Part shown: positions 4,181-19,973 of the stretch, one piece after another
Layout of the letters: each line of letters starts with the position of its first letter
Numbering within the stretch: position 1 is the stretch's first letter
Made by a program: the position numbers and the translations under genes
Virus record (IMG/VR): IMGVR_UViG_3300038318_000020
Span: 1-26,064 of that record
Length of the DNA stretch: 26,064 nt
DNA from: a virus
Lineage: Duplodnaviria; Caudoviricetes
Direction: 5' to 3' (one strand)
Notes under the pieces: model-generated
The model's input: only the letters and a program-made list of their open reading frames with translations
Databases searched by the model: none
Told to the model about the DNA's origin: nothing

Positions 4181-4402
4181 TTGTTACAACTTGTTACAGA
4201 TATCTGTAACACGATTAAGATTAGCAATATCAATGGTTATAAGATTATTGTTACAGATGTTACAGATATTTTAACTTCTTAGTATTTAATCATAATGAGT
4301 AAGTTCAATATGAATATATTACCTTATATATATATATAGGAAATCTGTAACAAAAACACCTAAAAAACATGTTCAAGTGTAGTAAAATCAATTGTTACAG
4401 AT
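4181..4402. repeat. TGTTACA(GAT) direct and inverted repeats; candidate replication origin
   Basis: Copies at 4182, 4192, 4249, 4258, 4393 (+) and 4202, 4343 (-); perfect 20-bp palindrome 4192-4211; (TA)n tract ~4325-4338; lies just downstream of the primase-helicase. Confidence 0.7.
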
Positions 4403-4428
4403 TTTTTAAAAAAAAGGAGGAGTTTATA

Positions 4429-5520
4429 ATGAAAATTAAAATATGTGCTAGAGATTTACAAAATATGTTAAAAACTGCAAAAGGTTTACAACTTAATAAA
4501 TTAGATATTGATATTCAAAAAGGTTTACAACTTAATAAATTAGATATTGATATTCAAAAAGGTTTATTAATAAAAAACGACACTCTAATCATGAACAACC
4601 TTCATACTCAATTAGAATCAAAATTTTATGTAGATGTAATAGAGCCAGGAGAAACATTGATTCCAGAACCTACACTTAAAATGATAGAAAATTTTAAATC
4701 AGGTTCAATAACAATAACAGAAAATACCATCACTCATGGCAGTAAAGAATTAAAATATATGCCTGGGTCAATAGAGGATTTTTATACAATAAATGATGAA
4801 ATATCTTATGAATTATTTACAGTTAAAGAATCGGAATTAAGCCATTTATTAGAAGCAAATTATGCAACATGTAATGATATAACTAGACCTGCATTACAAG
4901 GAATTGAAATAAGAGAAAACAAATTCATAGCATTGAATGAATATTATTTAAGTGTTAGACAAGGTAACTTCACTTGCAATGAAAAAATTTTAATATCTCC
5001 AGGGGTTTGGAAATTACTTTTAAAAGTATTAGATAAAAAATCAGATAACATTGTTAAAGTATCTTGGGATAAAGACAAATTAGTAAAATTTGAATTTGAA
5101 GATTTTACAGTCAAAGGTAATTTGTATAAAAATCATCTAATGGATGTGAAAAAAATAATACGTGATTATCATTCAACAGAAATAACATTAGAAGCTAATA
5201 AATTAATAGAATCATTAAAATTAATGGACAAGTTGACTAAAGAAGAACAATTAATTTTATTATCATTTACTGATAATAAATTAGAAATAAAAACTAAAAC
5301 GGATATGAATATAATGACAGATGAAATTGAAATATCTAAAATGGGTGAAGATGTTAACATTGCATTTAATATTAAATATTTATTGGCAGTAGTAAATCAA
5401 TATAAGAAAGAAAATGTAAAAGTAGAATTAAAAGGTCCTTATAATTCTATGATATTTAGAGGAGAAAATAAATTAGATTTAGTATTACCTGTACGATTAC
5501 CTGAAGACTATGGGTGGTAA
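4429..5520 (+). CDS. dnaN: phage-encoded DNA polymerase III beta sliding clamp homolog
   Basis: ~363 aa; VIEPGETLIP, TRPALQGI, IAFNIKYLL and C-terminal LVLPVR match beta-clamp motifs; AGGAGG RBS supports ATG 4429 rather than 4369. Confidence 0.82.
   Translation: MKIKICARDLQNMLKTAKGLQLNKLDIDIQKGLQLNKLDIDIQKGLLIKNDTLIMNNLHTQLESKFYVDVIEPGETLIPEPTLKMIENFKSGSITITENTITHGSKELKYMPGSIEDFYTINDEISYELFTVKESELSHLLEANYATCNDITRPALQGIEIRENKFIALNEYYLSVRQGNFTCNEKILISPGVWKLLLKVLDKKSDNIVKVSWDKDKLVKFEFEDFTVKGNLYKNHLMDVKKIIRDYHSTEITLEANKLIESLKLMDKLTKEEQLILLSFTDNKLEIKTKTDMNIMTDEIEISKMGEDVNIAFNIKYLLAVVNQYKKENVKVELKGPYNSMIFRGENKLDLVLPVRLPEDYGW
4479..4566 (+). repeat. perfect 39-bp in-frame tandem duplication (KGLQLNKLDIDIQ x2)
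   Basis: 4479-4517 equals 4518-4556, followed by a third AAAAGGTTTA at 4557-4566. Confidence 0.95.
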
Positions 5521-6344: not shown

Positions 6345-6662
6345 ATGGCAAGAGACTTTTCTAAAAAGTTTTATAACAGCAAGGAATGGAAGAAGTGTAG
6401 GGAAGGATATAAACAATCAGTCAATGGGTTATGTGAAAGATGTCTAGCTAATGGCAAGTATGTACCAGGGGAAGAAGTACATCATAAAACATATCTAACA
6501 CCAGAGAATATAAACAATCCAGATATAACTTTAAACTGGGATAGATTAGAATTACTTTGTGCGACTTGTCATAGCATTGAGCATAATAGAGTGGAGAAGG
6601 AAGTAGTACGAGAAGGGCTAAGGTTTGACAACTTAGGTAATTTGGTAGAGGATAAAGGATAA
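6345..6662 (+). CDS. packaging-associated HNH endonuclease (HK97 gp74-like)
   Basis: FYNSKEWK, LCERC, EEVHH, LLCATCHSIEH; 105 aa; upstream of terS as in cos phages. Confidence 0.88.
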   Translation: MARDFSKKFYNSKEWKKCREGYKQSVNGLCERCLANGKYVPGEEVHHKTYLTPENINNPDITLNWDRLELLCATCHSIEHNRVEKEVVREGLRFDNLGNLVEDKG

Positions 6663-6665
6663 ATA

Positions 6666-6674
6666 TGATATAAT
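6666..6674 (+). promoter_or_regulatory. extended -10 sigma-A promoter (TGaTATAAT)
   Basis: Consensus match; predicted +1 at G6681 coincides with the start of the structured leader. Confidence 0.7.
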
Positions 6675-6680
6675 ATATAT

Positions 6681-6772
6681 GTGGGATAGACCGACGGGTC
6701 GAAAGCAAGGTATTCCGAACCTTGTTTCCCACTACATATAAAATCGGGCAACACTACGGAGGTGTATTTATT
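6681..6772 (+). ncRNA. structured leader RNA, copy 1 (three-way junction plus RBS hairpin)
   Basis: P1 GTGGGA/TCCCAC, P2 GACC/GGTC, P3 AGCAAGG/CCTTGTT with loop TATTCCGAA; downstream TCGGGCAA and ACACTACGGAGGTGTATTT shared with copy 2. Confidence 0.7.
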
Positions 6773-7660
6773 ATGGATAAAAAAGAAAAGATGAACAAGA
6801 TTGTAGAGTTGTACAAGCAGGGTAAGGGTGCAAGATTAATTTCTAAAGAATTAAATATACCTAAAACAACAGTTCAACGTTATTTGAAAAAATCTAATAT
6901 TGAAATAAGAAAACATAGAAATAAAAAATTAACTGATGCAGAGGTAAAAGAGATAATAGATAAGAAGTATCCTGATTTTCAATATGTAGGTGGCTATACC
7001 AATGGGCATGGCAAAATGGTTATACAATGTAAAACTTGTGGATATAAGTTTGCATATACTACTGAGGTAATAAGACCAAGTAGAGATGTAGATATCCAGT
7101 GTGGTAACTGCAATGAAACAATCAAATTAAGAGATAGATTGACAAACATATTAAATAAATTATATACAGAACAGATGAGAATAATAAATAAAGAGCAAAG
7201 CATGACAATAACTGAGGAAGTGGAAAGTTTAAAGAGAATTGCAAAGAAACACAAATATTATTTAGAATGTGAAGAATGTGGCAGAATGTATTTTACTAAT
7301 AGAAATGATACTAAAACTTGCAGCAAAAGGTGTATCAATAAAAGAAATAATAGAATAAAAGAAATAAATAGGAGAAAAATCATAAAAGAAAACGGAGGGA
7401 TAGATTGGGATATAACATTGGACAAGTTAATTGAAAGAGATAAAAACATATGCTATATATGTAATGGTGAATGTAATAAGGAAGATTATATATTGGATAA
7501 AGATAATAACTTTATAGTTGGTTCTGATTATCCAAGTATAGATCATGTAATACCAATAAGTAAAGGTGGGACTCATACATGGGACAACGTAAGGTTAGCA
7601 CACCATCATTGTAATAGTATAAAAAAGGATAGTATAGTAAATGAAGGTGAAACAGGATAA
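6773..7660 (+). CDS. free-standing HNH homing-endonuclease-like protein (HTH + Zn ribbons + C-terminal HNH)
   Basis: GKGARLISKELNIPKTTVQRYL HTH; several CxxC pairs; SIDHVIPISKGGTHTWDNVRLAHHHCNSIK. GGAGGTG RBS supports ATG 6773. Confidence 0.88.
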   Translation: MDKKEKMNKIVELYKQGKGARLISKELNIPKTTVQRYLKKSNIEIRKHRNKKLTDAEVKEIIDKKYPDFQYVGGYTNGHGKMVIQCKTCGYKFAYTTEVIRPSRDVDIQCGNCNETIKLRDRLTNILNKLYTEQMRIINKEQSMTITEEVESLKRIAKKHKYYLECEECGRMYFTNRNDTKTCSKRCINKRNNRIKEINRRKIIKENGGIDWDITLDKLIERDKNICYICNGECNKEDYILDKDNNFIVGSDYPSIDHVIPISKGGTHTWDNVRLAHHHCNSIKKDSIVNEGETG

Positions 7661-7680: not shown

Positions 7681-7710
7681 AGACAAGGCTATTTGCTTTG
7701 TCTTTTTTAT
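7681..7710 (+). terminator. intrinsic terminator closing the HNH cassette
   Basis: AGACAAGGC-tattt-GCTTTGTCT followed by a T-run. Confidence 0.65.
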
Positions 7711-7734: not shown

Positions 7735-7830
7735 TAGTCCCCCCTTATTTTTTATTGGGTATCGGCTGAGTGAATACCAACTGTGCACCTTCATTTAACA
7801 CACGGGAGGTTCCCACATAACCCCCACCCT
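7735..7830. other. candidate cos region
   Basis: Non-coding, relatively GC-rich stretch bounded by C-runs between the HNH genes and terS; positional inference only, cut site not identifiable. Confidence 0.3.
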
Positions 7831-8709: not shown

Positions 8710-8775
8710 AGAATGGTGGCGACTTTAAATCGGGTAAAATCGGTGAAGGCTAAATTTAATATATAGAAACAAACA

Positions 8776-8804
8776 TTGACCAAGCAATATATTAATGATA
8801 TAAT
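8776..8804 (+). promoter_or_regulatory. intron-internal sigma-A promoter for the endonuclease
   Basis: TTGACC-17 bp-TATAAT with extended TG; GAGGTG RBS at 8813-8818. Confidence 0.75.
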
Positions 8805-8824
8805 AATATTGTGAGGTGAATGTA

Positions 8825-9679
8825 ATGAAGATTGTGGGTATTTATAAAATAACAAATTTAATAGATGGAAAAGTGTATATAGGGCAAACAGTAAACTACA
8901 ATAAAAGAAAGAAAAAACATTTAAGCAGTTTGAAAAATGGGAACCATCATAACGAACATCTACAAAGAGCCTTTGATAAGTATGGAGAAGATTCTTTTAA
9001 GATAGAGTTAATTAAAAAATGCAATATTGAAGAACTTGATAAATTAGAAAGATATTACATTAAGGAATTAGACGCTTGTAACCATGACAAAGGTTATAAT
9101 ATGATGTATGGTGGTCAGAGATATAGAAACTTTACAAAGAAAGTAAGGTTAAAAATGAGCGAGAAGGGTAAAGGTAGGAAATTTACAAATGAGCATAAAA
9201 AGAAAATAAGTCTTGCACAAAAAGGTAAAGTTATATCTCAAGAATCTATTGATAAAGCTAATGCGACAAAGAAAAAATTAAGAGTGCATTGTGGTGAAAA
9301 AAATCCAAATACATTAATTAGTGATAATGTTGCAGAAAAAATAATTATAGATTTATTAGAAGGAATTCCCATAAATGATATAGCAGATAAATATCAAGTT
9401 AGCAATGATGTAGTTTACAATCTTATGTATAATAGGTCATATTTGCACATCATGCCAGATGTGAGGGAAGAATTGAAAAACAGGACATCTATTTTACAAA
9501 CAAATAAAATAGAATCTGCTATTAAAATGTATTTACAGGGGCATTCTCAAAATGAGATTGCTAAAACTTTAAACATTAGCAGAAATACATTGAGAAGAGA
9601 ATTAAAAACTAGGAATATAAACCCACAAATAAATGTTAATCAATATGTTAAACAAGCTAATACCGAGGTAATCTTATAG
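8825..9679 (+). CDS. intron-encoded GIY-YIG homing endonuclease (NUMOD3 repeats, C-terminal HTHs)
   Basis: GIYKITN...VYIGQT, HHNEHLQRAFDKYG, LERYYI, GYN; EHKKKISLAQKG NUMOD3-like; SQNEIAKTLNISRNTLRR HTH. Confidence 0.92.
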   Translation: MKIVGIYKITNLIDGKVYIGQTVNYNKRKKKHLSSLKNGNHHNEHLQRAFDKYGEDSFKIELIKKCNIEELDKLERYYIKELDACNHDKGYNMMYGGQRYRNFTKKVRLKMSEKGKGRKFTNEHKKKISLAQKGKVISQESIDKANATKKKLRVHCGEKNPNTLISDNVAEKIIIDLLEGIPINDIADKYQVSNDVVYNLMYNRSYLHIMPDVREELKNRTSILQTNKIESAIKMYLQGHSQNEIAKTLNISRNTLRRELKTRNINPQINVNQYVKQANTEVIL

Positions 9680-9877
9680 ATTGCTAAAGGCTATGAGACA
9701 CCGTAACGCGTAGAGGATGAATAGATATAATTCCTCCAAGAGTGCCCGGCAACCAATAAAGGTTATCTTTTTTATTGGTTGAAAATGTACGCTAAACTGA
9801 GTTGGAAATGACCAACTAATGAGAATGAGGGAAACCTCCAGAGCATAGGATAAAAAGCCTATGGGTAATACTAATTG

Positions 9878-11134
9878 ACTAAGAAAGACCAAGCCAAAAT
9901 AGTATGGCAAGAAGCCAAGAGAATGGTTAATAAATCCCCTACCCTCAAAAAAAGAATAAGAACATTAGTAGGGGAGATTGATTCTGATTTTAATGATGGA
10001 GTATTTAAGGCATTAGCTTCTGATAGTGATAGCCTTGACGGACTAAACATCCATGTAGTAATAATGGATGAATGGCATCAGTGGAAAAATGGCAGAGCAT
10101 TATATGACATAATGGCTGATGGTATAACAGCAAGGGAACAGCCATTGATTATTATGACTTCTACTGCTGGGACTATTAGAGAAGATATATTTGATGAAAT
10201 ATATGAAGAGGCGGAAATACAATTTAATAATATGAAATTAGGAAACGAGGTTGATGATAGAACCTTGTTTTTTATTTATGAACTTGATAAAAAGGCTGAA
10301 TGGTGGGATGCAAATAATTGGATTAAGGCTAATCCAGGTTTAGGTACTATCAAGAAATTAAGAGCATTACAAGATAAAGCTAAAAGAGTGGCCGACAATC
10401 CAAAACTAGAGAAGAATTTTGTATGTAAAGAATTTAATATAAGAGAAACAAGTTCAGAATCATGGCTACCGTTTGAAGTCTTAAATAATACAGCTACATT
10501 TGATATAGAAAAATTAAAACCTAGGTATTGTGTTGCAGGAATTGACCTTGGAGCAACCACAGACTTAACTTGCGCAACGATAATATTTAGAGTACCTGAT
10601 GATCCGATTCTGTATGTGAAACAGATGTATTGGTTACCAGGTGATTTATTAGAAAAGAGAACAAGAGAAGATAAAATACCATATTCTACATGGTTAGACG
10701 ATGGCCTATTAAGAGTAAGTGAAGGTAATAAAGTTAATTACAAAGATGTTACGAAGTGGCTTTTGGAAGTCCAAAATGATATGGATATTTATATATTCAA
10801 GATTGGTTATGATAGTTGGAGTTCAACTTATTTGATAGATGAACTAGAACAGAATTTTGGAAAGATAACTGAAGCAGTCGTTCAAGGTGCAAAGACTTTT
10901 TCTAACCCTTTAAAGAGAGTAGAGGCAGAATTAGAAGCTAAAAGAATAAATTATGGAAACAACCCAATTTTCAAATGGAACCTCTCGAACAGTGCGATTA
11001 GCGTTGACAGGAATGACAATATTGCATTGGTTAAAACAAGTAATCCAAGACGTAGGATTGATGGTGTTGCCTCGTTCATGGATGCCTACATTGTGCTCGA
11101 AAGAAATTACCAAGAATATATGAATATAATATAG
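9878..11134 (+). CDS. terL: terminase large subunit, exon 2 (spliced protein 595 aa)
   Basis: TKKDQA, Walker B VIMDE, coupling motif TSTAG, WIKANPGLG, nuclease GIDLG and RIDG. Confidence 0.92.
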   Translation, partial: TKKDQAKIVWQEAKRMVNKSPTLKKRIRTLVGEIDSDFNDGVFKALASDSDSLDGLNIHVVIMDEWHQWKNGRALYDIMADGITAREQPLIIMTSTAGTIREDIFDEIYEEAEIQFNNMKLGNEVDDRTLFFIYELDKKAEWWDANNWIKANPGLGTIKKLRALQDKAKRVADNPKLEKNFVCKEFNIRETSSESWLPFEVLNNTATFDIEKLKPRYCVAGIDLGATTDLTCATIIFRVPDDPILYVKQMYWLPGDLLEKRTREDKIPYSTWLDDGLLRVSEGNKVNYKDVTKWLLEVQNDMDIYIFKIGYDSWSSTYLIDELEQNFGKITEAVVQGAKTFSNPLKRVEAELEAKRINYGNNPIFKWNLSNSAISVDRNDNIALVKTSNPRRRIDGVASFMDAYIVLERNYQEYMNII

Positions 11135-11139
11135 AATTA

Positions 11140-11148
11140 TGATATAAT
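11140..11148 (+). promoter_or_regulatory. extended -10 sigma-A promoter (TGaTATAAT)
   Basis: Same motif and the same 7-nt distance to the leader's G (11155) as at 6666. Confidence 0.7.
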
Positions 11149-11152
11149 TTAT

Positions 11153-11270
11153 ATGTAGGATAGTTATGGACTAGCTACCCATAATGACAAGAAGGAAGCC
11201 CGAACCTTCTTCCTACATACATAAAATTAAACATTCGGGCAAGCTAAACACTATCGGAGGTGTATTTGTT
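11153..11270 (+). ncRNA. structured leader RNA, copy 2
   Basis: P1 ATGTAGGA/TCCTACAT, P2 TTATGG/CCATAA, P3 AGAAGG/CCTTCT with loop AAGCCCGAA complementary to TTCGGGC 11234-11240; ACACTATCGGAGGTGTATTT before the ATG. Confidence 0.72.
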
Positions 11271-11738
11271 ATGGCTAAAAAGATAAAAGTAAAATGCAAA
11301 ATAGACGGGAGTATATGGATGGCGAAAGGTAATCATTTATTAAATGGACATGGATGCCCAGCGTGTAGTGAAAGCAAAGGTGAAAAGATGATTAGAAAGT
11401 ATTTAAGGAAAAAACATATTAAATATAGAAGTCAGTATAAGATGGCAAAATATAAAAATGAGCGTTCATTACCATTTGATTTTGCAATATTTAATAATAG
11501 TAAATTGATAGCATTAATGGAATATCAAGGAATACAACATTATGAACCCATAGAATATTTCGGTGGAGAGAAGATGTTTAAATATCAAAGAGAAAATGAC
11601 AACATAAAAAGAAATTATTGCAAAATAAATGATATACCATTAATAGAAATACCATATACTGTAGATAATATTGAAGGATATTTAGACAAACAATTGTCAG
11701 AATTAGATAAATCAATACGATTAGCACTTACTAGATAG
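11271..11738 (+). CDS. Vsr/DUF559/DUF2726-like PD-(D/E)xK endonuclease, possibly N-terminally shortened
   Basis: GCPACSESKGE, LPFDF, EYQGIQHY, DNIKRNYC, LIEIPY; GGAGGTG RBS supports ATG 11271. Confidence 0.8.
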   Translation: MAKKIKVKCKIDGSIWMAKGNHLLNGHGCPACSESKGEKMIRKYLRKKHIKYRSQYKMAKYKNERSLPFDFAIFNNSKLIALMEYQGIQHYEPIEYFGGEKMFKYQRENDNIKRNYCKINDIPLIEIPYTVDNIEGYLDKQLSELDKSIRLALTR

Positions 11739-11753
11739 TAGGTGCTTTTATTA
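11723..11753 (+). terminator. intrinsic terminator
   Basis: AGCACTTACT-agat-AGTAGGTGCT followed by TTTATT. Confidence 0.7.
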
Positions 11754-18242: not shown

Positions 18243-18259
18243 CACCTTAACAGGTGCTA
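18240..18259. terminator. hairpin between convergent stop codons
   Basis: TAGCACCT-taac-AGGTGCTA perfect 8-bp stem containing both TAG stops. Confidence 0.6.
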
Positions 18260-18745
18260 TAGTATTTTAGATTTAACTTTAATTTTATTGATAAAGCCTA
18301 TCATTTCCATACTATCAGAGAATGCAGTTTTAGGAATAAGTAAACTATCGCCCGGATTAAATCTAATGAAAATAAAATAATCATTAACAAAGGTTACCTC
18401 TTCTATTTCATTAAACTTGTAAGAAGTAGTCCTAGTTGAATTAGTCACAGTTAGATGGTTTTCATCAATTTCAATTATTCTTTCATCCTTAGTATCAATT
18501 TTATTAAGATATTTTTTCTTTAGTAATTTGGGAGATTTTAAAATTAAGTAGATTACTACTAGAAATACAATTATAGGTATGGCAAATGAATAATCCTTAG
18601 CAATTAAAGCCAATAACAGTATTGCTATTAAAGCAAAGCCACCTATAAATAGCAATAATTTTGGAATAGTTTTGTTTTTGGCACTAAAATCACTTGAGAC
18701 ATATTTCTTTAAATCTTCTTCGGTGATGCTATAGGTTATTTTCAT
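18257..18745 (-). CDS. YcxB-like membrane protein (moron)
   Basis: Two hydrophobic helices, then YKFNEIEEV...LLIPKTAF; AAGGAGTG RBS. Confidence 0.78.
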   Translation of the reverse strand: MKITYSITEEDLKKYVSSDFSAKNKTIPKLLLFIGGFALIAILLLALIAKDYSFAIPIIVFLVVIYLILKSPKLLKKKYLNKIDTKDERIIEIDENHLTVTNSTRTTSYKFNEIEEVTFVNDYFIFIRFNPGDSLLIPKTAFSDSMEMIGFINKIKVKSKIL

Positions 18746-18770
18746 AATATCACTCCTTGCTTTTTACTAA

Positions 18771-18799
18771 ATAATATCATAGAAGAAGGGGAAAATCAA
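18771..18799 (-). promoter_or_regulatory. sigma-A promoter for the YcxB-like gene
   Basis: TTGATT-17 bp-TATTAT with extended TG on the - strand. Confidence 0.6.
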
Positions 18800-18805
18800 A
18801 AGAAT

Positions 18806-18835
18806 AAAAGCCCACTATTTAGAAGTAGGCTTTTT
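18806..18835 (-). terminator. terminator after the RHH gene
   Basis: AAAAGCCCACT...AGTAGGCTTTT inverted repeat with T-runs in both directions. Confidence 0.6.
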
Positions 18836-18979
18836 GTATTCATCTAAAACTAATTCTATACCTCTATCTAGCAATCTAGACATTGGTATCATAGTTTCTT
18901 TAGATAGTTTTTTTAATTGTTGGAATAATTTTTTGTCAACAGCATTACCTATTCTTATTCTATTTTTTAAGTCAGACAT
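18815..18979 (-). CDS. ribbon-helix-helix DNA-binding protein (54 aa; absent from the ORF track)
   Basis: MSDLKNRIRIGNAVDKKLFQQLKKLSKETMIPMSRLLDRGIELVLDEYKKPTSK; AGGAGG RBS at 18987-18992; beta-helix-helix pattern. Confidence 0.85.
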   Translation of the reverse strand: MSDLKNRIRIGNAVDKKLFQQLKKLSKETMIPMSRLLDRGIELVLDEYKKPTSK

Positions 18980-18998
18980 AATGGCACCTCCTATTATT

Positions 18999-19058
18999 CT
19001 ATATTATACTACTTACTTAATATACTTGCAACTTATAGCAGTTTATAGTATAATATAG
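18999..19058. promoter_or_regulatory. symmetric bidirectional promoter sharing one palindromic -35
   Basis: TTGCAA 19026-19031 is 17 bp from TATAAT on both strands (19049-19054 +, 19003-19008 -); 13-bp inverted repeat 18999-19011/19046-19058. Confidence 0.8.
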
Positions 19059-19076
19059 TAAAGGGGGAAGAAAAGA

Positions 19077-19973
19077 ATGGAGTACAAAAGAGAATTAATA
19101 GAAAATAAAATGGTAGTTTATGCTATCACTAATAAAATCAATGGTAAAAAGTATATAGGAATTACAACTAATTCATTTGCAGAAAGGTATCCGCATGGAA
19201 TAAGAGCACATCATAACCCACATTTGAGAAATTCAGTTAAAAAATATGGACAAGAGAATTTTGAAGTAATGCTACTAGAAAAGAAAGTAGAAAATATGGA
19301 AACTTTATGTAAGCTAGAAATGAAATATATAGAAAAATATGATACTTGTAATGCGGACAAGGGTTATAATAAATCCTTGGGCGGTCTTGGGGTAAGGCAA
19401 ACAGAAAGAAGCGAAGAACATTGCAGGAACATTAGTATAGCTAAAAAGAAAATAGGTTTAAATACACTAACTAGAATGACACCAGAGGCAATAAAAAAGA
19501 GAAACGCTAAAATAAGTAAAGCTATGAAAGGTAAAAATAATCCTGCATGGCGTGGAGGCGTAAGTTATAAAAGAAAGCTTAAGGGGTTGTCTAAAGAAGA
19601 AGGGTATAAAATAGATGGCATAAGCCTCAGCACACGCGAAAAATTGAGACAAGCATCATTAGGTGAAAATAACCCTATGTATGGAAAAAATATCAAGGAT
19701 TATATGACGGAAGAAGAATACGAGGAATGGAAAATCAAAGTTGCTAATCCAGGGGCTAAAAATGGAATGGCAAGGAAGGCAGTAATTATATACAAAAACC
19801 AAAAATACGAATTTGACTATGCACAAGAAGGCATAGACTACTTTAAGAACAAAGGTGAGCACATAACAAGATATTGGTTTTACAATGGGGTTACAGAAAA
19901 ATACAAGGATAAGTTTCAATTTGTTGGTTATATAGAAGATTATGAGGAATACATAAAGGCATTGGCTAAATAG
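19077..19973 (+). CDS. free-standing GIY-YIG endonuclease with NUMOD3-like repeats
   Basis: VVYAITNKINGKKYIGIT, HNPHLRNSVKKYG, LEMKYI, GYN; GKNNPAW and GENNPMYGK motifs. Confidence 0.9.
   Translation: MEYKRELIENKMVVYAITNKINGKKYIGITTNSFAERYPHGIRAHHNPHLRNSVKKYGQENFEVMLLEKKVENMETLCKLEMKYIEKYDTCNADKGYNKSLGGLGVRQTERSEEHCRNISIAKKKIGLNTLTRMTPEAIKKRNAKISKAMKGKNNPAWRGGVSYKRKLKGLSKEEGYKIDGISLSTREKLRQASLGENNPMYGKNIKDYMTEEEYEEWKIKVANPGAKNGMARKAVIIYKNQKYEFDYAQEGIDYFKNKGEHITRYWFYNGVTEKYKDKFQFVGYIEDYEEYIKALAK

Follow-up and report, generated by a model that had tools for sequence, protein, structure and literature searches.

Why do two different nuclease genes in one phage genome stand behind what appears to be the same folded RNA leader, and what could such a leader do? 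The window, by which we mean the whole stretch of 26,064 nucleotides analysed here, is a linear virus fragment of 26 kb, estimated in its record to be 68% complete, and it carries genes for replication and for tails as well as a packaging module. It contains two cassettes of identical order: promoter-like site, leader, nuclease gene and terminator-like site. The first lies between a small packaging-type HNH gene (stop at 6662) and the small terminase gene, the second between the large terminase gene TerL (stop at 11134) and the portal gene. They begin 4 and 6 bases past these two stop codons and end in terminator-like (intrinsic) sites at 7681–7703 and 11723–11746, both on the plus strand, as are all features of the two cassettes. 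The initial annotation had described two leaders of shared layout, each starting right after the stop of a packaging gene and each cassette closed by a terminator, and sequence and folds are as it described them.

In the first copy an extended −10 promoter-like element of the type TG-n-TATAAT (here TG-a-TATAAT, 6666–6674, recognised by sequence) is followed by six bases and then G6681, and the predicted start of transcription lies at or next to this G. A three-way junction with an int-alpA-like core spans 6681–6732: P1 (6681–6686 paired with 6727–6732) leads through UAG into P2 (6689–6700), and GAA separates P2 from P3 (6704–6726). The P2 tetraloop GACG (6693–6696) is a predicted self-kissing loop, going by our survey of P2 loops and by PMC7357161 in its available part. 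The P3 loop UAUUCCGAA (6711–6719) is the putative anti-Shine-Dalgarno key, since it changes together with both of its targets in relatives. Target 1, which we call the decoy, is TCGGG (6744–6748) and pairs with the loop over 5 bp, one of them U-G, at −6.0 kcal/mol. Target 2, CGGA, lies in the loop of a predicted small hairpin, P4 (ACACT/GGTGT, 6751–6765), which also holds the Shine-Dalgarno sequence GGAGGTG (6758–6764). The second copy (11140–11273) repeats this layout, with an extended −10 element (11140–11148), a three-way junction (11155–11216), a P2 loop containing the palindrome UAGCUA (11170–11178), a P3 loop (11196–11204), a target 1 that forms 7 bp with its own loop (11234–11240; −12.9 kcal/mol) and a P4 hairpin with target 2 and the Shine-Dalgarno sequence (11248–11263).

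Both cores fold as drawn, copy 1 with a z score of −3.45 (1 of 200 shuffles as good) and copy 2 with −2.0 (8 of 200). Our own covariance model, R1, gives them 51 and 53 bits and everything else in the window at most 13, and the 19-nt tail that carries the Shine-Dalgarno sequence occurs twice in the window and never in 100 shuffles. The loop of copy 1 also matches the Shine-Dalgarno site of copy 2 (−7.4, against −5.8 with its own site). Contigs of RNA runs, which show no starts, ends, strand or level, include one that covers 6600–6989 and another that has a related leader.

The initial annotation did not recognise the leader as a named family. Relatives of the leader pass the cut-off of the Rfam family int-alpA (RF02996, typed "Gene; sRNA"), though the window copies themselves are missed: in an Rfam scan of the window both stay below any reported level (the gathering cut-off is 35.8 bits), and the only matches, to SurA, preQ1-II and 6A, are chance ones. 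From one group of 20 relatives 2 pass the cut-off and 4 more match below it; from 20 relatives selected on P2, among the matches listed, 16 pass and 3 match below it. The remaining one of these, L667, is nearly identical to copy 1 and has no RF02996 match. By comparison of sequence and predicted architecture, both window leaders are divergent relatives of int-alpA. In the RF02996 consensus the junction is likewise P1-UAG-P2-CGA(A)AA-P3-P1', the P2 loop is of GACG type, CC is part of the P3 loop, and a U/A-rich tail runs as far as the decoy. In the window copies the junction reads P1-UAG-P2-(C)GA(A/C)A-P3 with P3 near-stacked on P1, the P3 loop contains CC, and the U/A-rich tail ends in a complementary GG site. 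It is because this whole architecture is shared that we assign them to a divergent branch of int-alpA, though formal score and gene context fail.

The differences are of several kinds. Going by its name, int-alpA is presumably located near integrase and alpA genes, a context not seen for the window copies, which sit in the packaging module ahead of nucleases. In the window branch P1 is shorter and has an extended −10 box of its own immediately before it, and the leader stands at the head of cassettes for free-standing nucleases. The Rfam model, for its part, draws no pairing between loop and target and ends before the Shine-Dalgarno site and P4. The 29 canonical int-alpA loci inspected by eye, out of 30, mostly show the same two downstream sites. 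R1, which was trained on one type of P1, matched the site in 17 of 30 canonical loci at E ≤ 1 and in 5 at E < 0.01, mostly partially. Of 151 genomes in the phylum to which an Aquamicrobium genome belongs, 33 have RF02996 matches above the cut-off, and the 30 canonical loci come from these. In 149 genomes from the class of an Oscillospiraceae genome R1 gave four matches at E ≤ 0.001: besides the seed there is a single clear new copy, and the other two appear false on inspection.

We take int-alpA to originate from a survey of 224 motifs. The available main text of that survey (PMC5737381) does not name it; its supplement may already describe part of the anatomy (pseudoknot, Shine-Dalgarno pairing, palindromes). 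In the literature searched, which included few subscription papers and was in part accessible only as excerpts, int-alpA appears only as a table entry or a gene-order label and RF02996 is absent, and we found no tested function for the fold in the searchable literature. RAGATH-18 and TnpB guide RNAs were also considered as candidate identities for the leader and rejected, as there is no Rfam match and no position downstream of an IS607 TnpB.

How common is the element outside the window? A blastn search of the leader against an annotated phage collection returned two short chance matches only. A pattern built on the shared words "CCGAACCTT...TCGGGCAA" hit 93 loci, none with the fold by eye, and was rejected. 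A promoter-plus-P1 pattern hit 17 loci, 15 with the full fold and 1 a remnant, and a pattern run on genome contigs hit 14, of which 9 parsed as elements. Two looser P1-anchored scans, in which P2 was left free, supply together with this genome scan our first set: 127 distinct elements that parsed, reduced to 113 by dereplication at 90%. Matches that the parser rejected are left out of the counts (25 of 102 distinct matches in one round of parsing). One locus, L137, was parsed wrongly; the permutation statistics with n = 113 and n = 104 include it, and later counts do not.

Because these first patterns fix P1, we ran two further scans that fix only P2 and the junction and leave P1 and P3 free. 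One 17-nt P2 variant is present in about 1,400 stored stretches of the viral collection (estimated from 6 of its 64 parts), and the second P2-selected scan is estimated to hit about 850. Among the matches listed, 54 of 84 and 70 of 96 dereplicated elements parsed, and a P1 of at least 6 bp forms in 42 of the 84 and 66 of the 96, against 22 of 411 and 27 of 477 with the 5' arm swapped. The 124 parsed elements from these listed matches contain 86 different P1 sequences. On a MAFFT alignment of 52 GACG-type sequences (51 of 70 among the matches listed, plus copy 1), RNAalifold recovered P1 and P2 and found two-sided changes at 8 of 12 pairs, in up to 31 of the 52 sequences per pair; it missed P3, whose columns are misaligned, and covariation in P3 rests on the parse of each sequence. 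By these comparisons both P1 and P3 covary freely when relatives are picked on P2 alone. The covariation among homologs that the initial annotation had looked to is thus seen in the P1 arm swaps and in the two-sided changes. The element is real, and far more widespread than the window suggests.

If the stems hold the fold, what do the loops do? The initial annotation had proposed that the P3 loop can pair either with the Shine-Dalgarno sequence or with a nearer site, and in permutation tests on both sets the loop changes together with both. We scored the longest duplex between loop and tail, for the element's own tail and for permuted tails (the permutations preserve relatedness only via dereplication at 85–90%). 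At the decoy the mean score in the first set is 5.42, against 3.70 for permuted tails (n = 113), and 87 of 113 elements reach at least 5, against 19% of off-diagonal combinations. At the Shine-Dalgarno site the values are 5.61 against 4.27 (n = 104), with 87 of 104 at 5 or more, against 26% off-diagonal. The P2-selected set, among the matches listed, gives 4.74 against 3.18 for the decoy (n = 103) and 5.43 against 4.01 for the Shine-Dalgarno site (n = 119). None of 10,000 permutations reached the observed mean in any of the four tests. Among the same listed matches at least two sites per element are present in 96 of 124, compared with 86 of 369 swapped combinations.

The initial annotation had also noted TCGGGCAA and a CCGAA loop as kept in both copies; they are not constants of the family, as relatives carry many other pairs of loop and target. 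We find at least six loop classes, and each of them tracks its complement at the decoy and at the Shine-Dalgarno site alike. In a crude tabulation, the two bases that follow CC in the loop match the two that precede GG in the target exactly in 67 of 99 and 48 of 94 cases, and loops with CCC slip register. Within the family, copy 2 and its relative L102 differ by a two-sided change: loop and near site have both changed yet still pair, and the Shine-Dalgarno site did not change in step. The Shine-Dalgarno site lies in a small hairpin (P4) in 77 of 97 and 71 of 101 relatives (the latter among the matches listed), against means of 47 and 31 after swapping.

The decoy is found 6–21 nt past P1. The first site is never closer than 6 nt to P1 (96 cases among the matches listed, with 0–26 allowed), which fits the requirement of a pseudoknot in cis. 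The linker is shorter with longer helices (rho −0.41), counter to a simple reach argument, and 26 of 113 first-set elements score below 5 at the decoy, some of them seemingly with one site only. Over 105 elements pairing is stronger at the decoy in 52, stronger at the Shine-Dalgarno site in 47 and tied in 6. As in C4 and CI RNAs, the variable loop is complementary to a site that overlaps the ribosome binding site of the downstream gene. We consider it very probable, on these comparative signals, that the P3 loop controls translation by anti-Shine-Dalgarno pairing.

The P2 loop has a property that the initial annotation missed: it is self-complementary. In 106 of 114 elements it is either palindromic or GACG (8 are neither). 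Outside the GACG type, palindromes of at least 4 nt are found in 92 of 100 P2 loops (mean of 2,000 shuffles 33.3, maximum 48), those of at least 6 nt in 46 of 100 (mean 4.9, maximum 13). Counting distinct loops only, 48 of 56 are palindromic (shuffle mean 18.1, maximum 29). There are 20 different palindromes, and GACG is found in 14 further elements. P3 loops, taken as a control, show no excess (20 of 86 palindromic, 25 expected). In canonical int-alpA 28 of 29 P2 loops are palindromic or GACG.

Palindromic loops and GACG tetraloops are the dimer linkages of retroviruses, and the GACG kissing dimer is held by two base pairs, according to the available parts of PMC516450 (loops) and PMC7357161 (loops and dimer). 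The same two types, palindromic 4–8-mers as in the HIV-1 DIS and GACG as in MoMuLV/MoMuSV, alternate at P2. The resemblance is one of loop type, without homology, and the dimer here is a prediction from sequence. Where one contig carries several copies (L271, L367, L121/L178, L141/L306 and the window), the members of a pair differ in the P2 loop, the P3 loop or both, as judged by eye in a small sample. The minus strand of L271 (783–2000) has three tandem leaders with identical P2 and all different P3 loops, each after its own promoter-like site. Self-pairing of P2 probably plays some role, although we hold this with clearly less confidence than the function of P3.

The two window copies are not alone in having a promoter-like site at this position. 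In a P1 scan that does not depend on the promoter, TATAAT with at most one mismatch lies 4–9 nt ahead of P1 in 49 of 77 elements, against 34 of 383 control positions; 44 of the 49 are at 6–7 nt and 38 have TG. In the P2-selected set, among the matches listed, the count is 45 of 124 (control 12 of 347), so other branches often go without the −10 box. Few elements have a terminator-like U run behind P1 (31 of 124, among the matches listed, and 11 of 112), and neither window copy does.

What does the leader travel with? Nuclease 1 (6773–7660) is a free-standing protein of 295 aa with a helix-turn-helix domain, a zinc ribbon and an HNH domain (Pfam HNH, E = 7e-8). It has 434 homologues, and the related-locus search with nuclease 1 found no relatives among viral contigs. 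Nuclease 2 (11271–11738) is Vsr-like (a weak match to DUF2726) and internally deleted: residues 3–155 of its 155 correspond to residues 234–386 of a 386-aa relative at L128 (96%), and about 690 bp are absent. The initial annotation's pair of nuclease genes therefore stands for the HNH gene, and for the Vsr-like gene only as an internally deleted derivative. Contigs from two public runs join across cassette 2.

The gap between TerL and the portal gene could be measured in 68 of 71 loci with a related TerL. It is below 150 bp and free of the element in 57, filled by an element right after the stop in 4 and by other inserts in 7. Because 57 of these 68 junctions are empty, comparison of loci tells us that the cassette is mobile, and the leader, which the initial annotation had called portable, rides on it. 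The leader differs in each of the four filled junctions; the gene behind it is of GIY-YIG type in three of them (two recognised by Pfam, one by eye) and is a deleted gene in the fourth. At the site of cassette 1 the element is absent from all 25 loci that have both flanking genes, which are distant loci, and at L099 an element stands at a similar gene end, ahead of a GIY-YIG gene.

Cassettes are also seen in other states. One related phage has two decayed cassettes: at L103 (456–560) a leader remnant without nuclease ahead of TerL, and at L102 (1513–1680, minus strand) an intact leader ahead of the portal gene with the nuclease nearly all deleted. At L094 (322–480) an IS607-type serine recombinase gene (by eye) lies directly 3' of the leader's Shine-Dalgarno sequence and was apparently inserted into the cassette.

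Some further features of the window deserve mention in their own right. TerL is split at 8750–9875 by an intron-like insert with a GIY-YIG gene (8816–9679); the insert has its own strong promoter-like site (8776–8804) and no int-alpA leader. Contigs from two runs show another form, with a 27-letter hairpin in place of about 900 bp. The insert is probably a group I intron, and the Rfam scan of the window gave no match for it. At 18257–19973 a divergent YcxB-like gene and a ribbon-helix-helix gene lie on the minus strand, adjoined by a free-standing GIY-YIG/NUMOD3 gene (19077–19973) just ahead of the tape measure gene; R1 finds no int-alpA-type leader in this region. Near the start of a sliding-clamp-like gene (4369–5520) is a perfect, in-frame 39-nt tandem duplication (4479–4567). 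Between the terminator of cassette 1 and the small terminase gene, 7735–7830 has C-runs and short inverted repeats, and we take this to be the place where a cos-type packaging site might be expected.

Nucleases are not the only genes behind the leader. Pfam was run on 83 of 105 downstream proteins (20 cut by locus ends and the two window proteins were excluded; a script chose the start codons, perhaps wrongly in some cases). It assigned 23 to HNH, 17 to GIY-YIG, 5 to PD-(D/E)XK types, 5 to homing-endonuclease-type DNA-binding domains only, 3 to antirepressor types and 4 to others, and 26 had no match. The same leader also heads EndoVII nucleases. For 35 of 76 P2-selected proteins (the viral ones, among the matches listed) PHROGs gives 20 nucleases, 6 replication initiators, 1 helicase loader, 1 antirepressor, 1 protease-like protein and 6 without a match. 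The leader is found ahead of phage replication-initiator genes at L452, L453, L462, L486, L488 and L491, and two of the three leaders of L271 precede AntA antirepressor genes. The downstream genes, for the most part homing-type nucleases unrelated to one another, are of dose-sensitive kinds (nucleases, replication initiators, antirepressors), and the position before replication initiators suggests control of the copy-number type.

Our preferred reading is that the leader, a divergent int-alpA-type 5' leader, is a concentration-dependent brake on the translation of a selfish nuclease gene, and we give the model in full an even chance of being right. Transcription would start at P1, from the cassette's own extended −10 promoter. 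In the nascent leader the P3 loop would pair in cis with the decoy as a pseudoknot and leave the Shine-Dalgarno sequence open, and a newly arrived cassette would produce a burst of nuclease. Trimming, cleavage or termination in the G-poor linker that follows P1 would then let short leader RNAs lacking the decoy build up. Such a short RNA would dock on a new transcript by P2–P2 kissing, and its free P3 loop would cover the Shine-Dalgarno hairpin. With that site covered by a second RNA, translation would be switched off in a dose-dependent manner that tightens as RNA copies build up. With P2 and P3 as a pair of interchangeable keys, different cassettes would stay separate from one another. Silencing in a lysogen, as the initial annotation had it, would need a temperate phage, and this 68%-complete fragment shows no sign of being one.

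For the direction of the switch and the short trans-acting form we infer by analogy with C4 of phages P1 and P7 and CI of P4. According to the available part of PMC5320573, these are branched RNAs derived from the leader of the operon they control, in which a variable loop sets specificity and occludes the ribosome binding site. The C4 model (RF01695, clan CL00128) also has a UCC-containing loop, and some relatives of the window leaders head antirepressor genes. The comparison, already drawn in the initial annotation, is apt for how the leader may work. The two differ in build: in the accessible description the P1 of C4 is 18 bp long, a UAG/GA junction is lacking, two loops do the targeting and RNase P processes the RNA, whereas the window leaders have one loop with two targets and another that is self-complementary. 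RNase P processing of the 5' end would be unneeded here because the −10 box puts the likely start at P1. The C4 covariance model has no match in the window or in the loci of 40 relatives, and R1 none in a P4 C4-family locus.

The main rival to this brake is a switch that works purely in cis, with the P3 loop alternating between decoy and Shine-Dalgarno site in one transcript and setting a low, fixed rate of translation. Because the two pairings are about equally strong, such an equilibrium fits too, and both sites are reachable in cis. In a variant, read-through transcripts of the late operon would fold differently from those of the cassette's own promoter, as for the hairpins of T4 homing endonucleases, and the P2 loop would be there for another purpose; the leader does lie inside a late operon and also has its own promoter-like site. 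The precedent is good: the T-even homing endonucleases I-TevI/II/III, segB and Aeh1 mobE have RNA hairpins that sequester the Shine-Dalgarno sequence, together with a cassette promoter (PMC2988022, available part), and there, too, RNA structure over that sequence controls translation of homing endonucleases. In what this source offers, those are single local hairpins removed by use of the late promoter; the window leaders differ in their conserved three-way junction, loop-loop anti-Shine-Dalgarno pairing, decoy and predicted dimer loop. Against the cis switch, both transcript types would hold the junction here because it forms entirely downstream of the predicted start, and 20 different palindromes plus GACG at one loop are left unexplained. 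We regard the cis switch as a serious candidate, though a rather unlikely one.

More improbable still is a riboswitch-like device, in which the junction (UAG ... CGA(C/A)AAG) would bind a host or phage protein or a small molecule and flip the loop between decoy and Shine-Dalgarno site. In its favour, conservation is far stronger in the letters of the junction than in the stems, but these letters are partly fixed by our search patterns, the downstream genes have no common metabolic theme, and the P2 palindromes go unexplained. The initial annotation had also proposed that the RNA is a partner of the nuclease, and a partner or guide would suit the preponderance of nucleases downstream (45 of 83 with a catalytic domain in Pfam; 20 of 35 in PHROGs, among the matches listed). 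The proposal fares badly because these nucleases have unrelated folds (HNH, GIY-YIG, EndoVII, PD-(D/E)XK), the same leader heads replication initiators (6 of 35 among the matches listed), a helicase loader and antirepressors, and the only variable loop is accounted for by two sites in the same leader; we think it very improbable. Equally far-fetched is an action as DNA, with the palindromes as operators or with single-stranded hairpins serving mobility. Dimeric proteins can bind palindromes, and the element lies at a cassette end; against this, stems and loop-target pairs retain G-U pairs, the element always lies on the coding strand between −10 box and Shine-Dalgarno sequence, and its palindromes have no fixed sequence.

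If the dimer step of the brake model is real, the leader would be a compact, RNA-only negative feedback, and it would explain how free-standing nucleases with a strong promoter of their own are tolerated. It would also be a regulatory part of 60–90 nt with two programmable loops. The comparative signals make the orphan int-alpA family testable by a few point mutants. More tentatively, and with somewhat less than even confidence, we suggest that int-alpA and its unrecognised relatives form a widespread, protein-free dose sensor, in which copies are counted by retrovirus-style kissing and the anti-Shine-Dalgarno loop of the partner silences the gene. If true, phage homing nucleases, replication initiators and antirepressors across many hosts would share one behaviour, a burst on entry and silence afterwards, and two freely exchangeable loop keys would sort them into many groups that do not cross-react.
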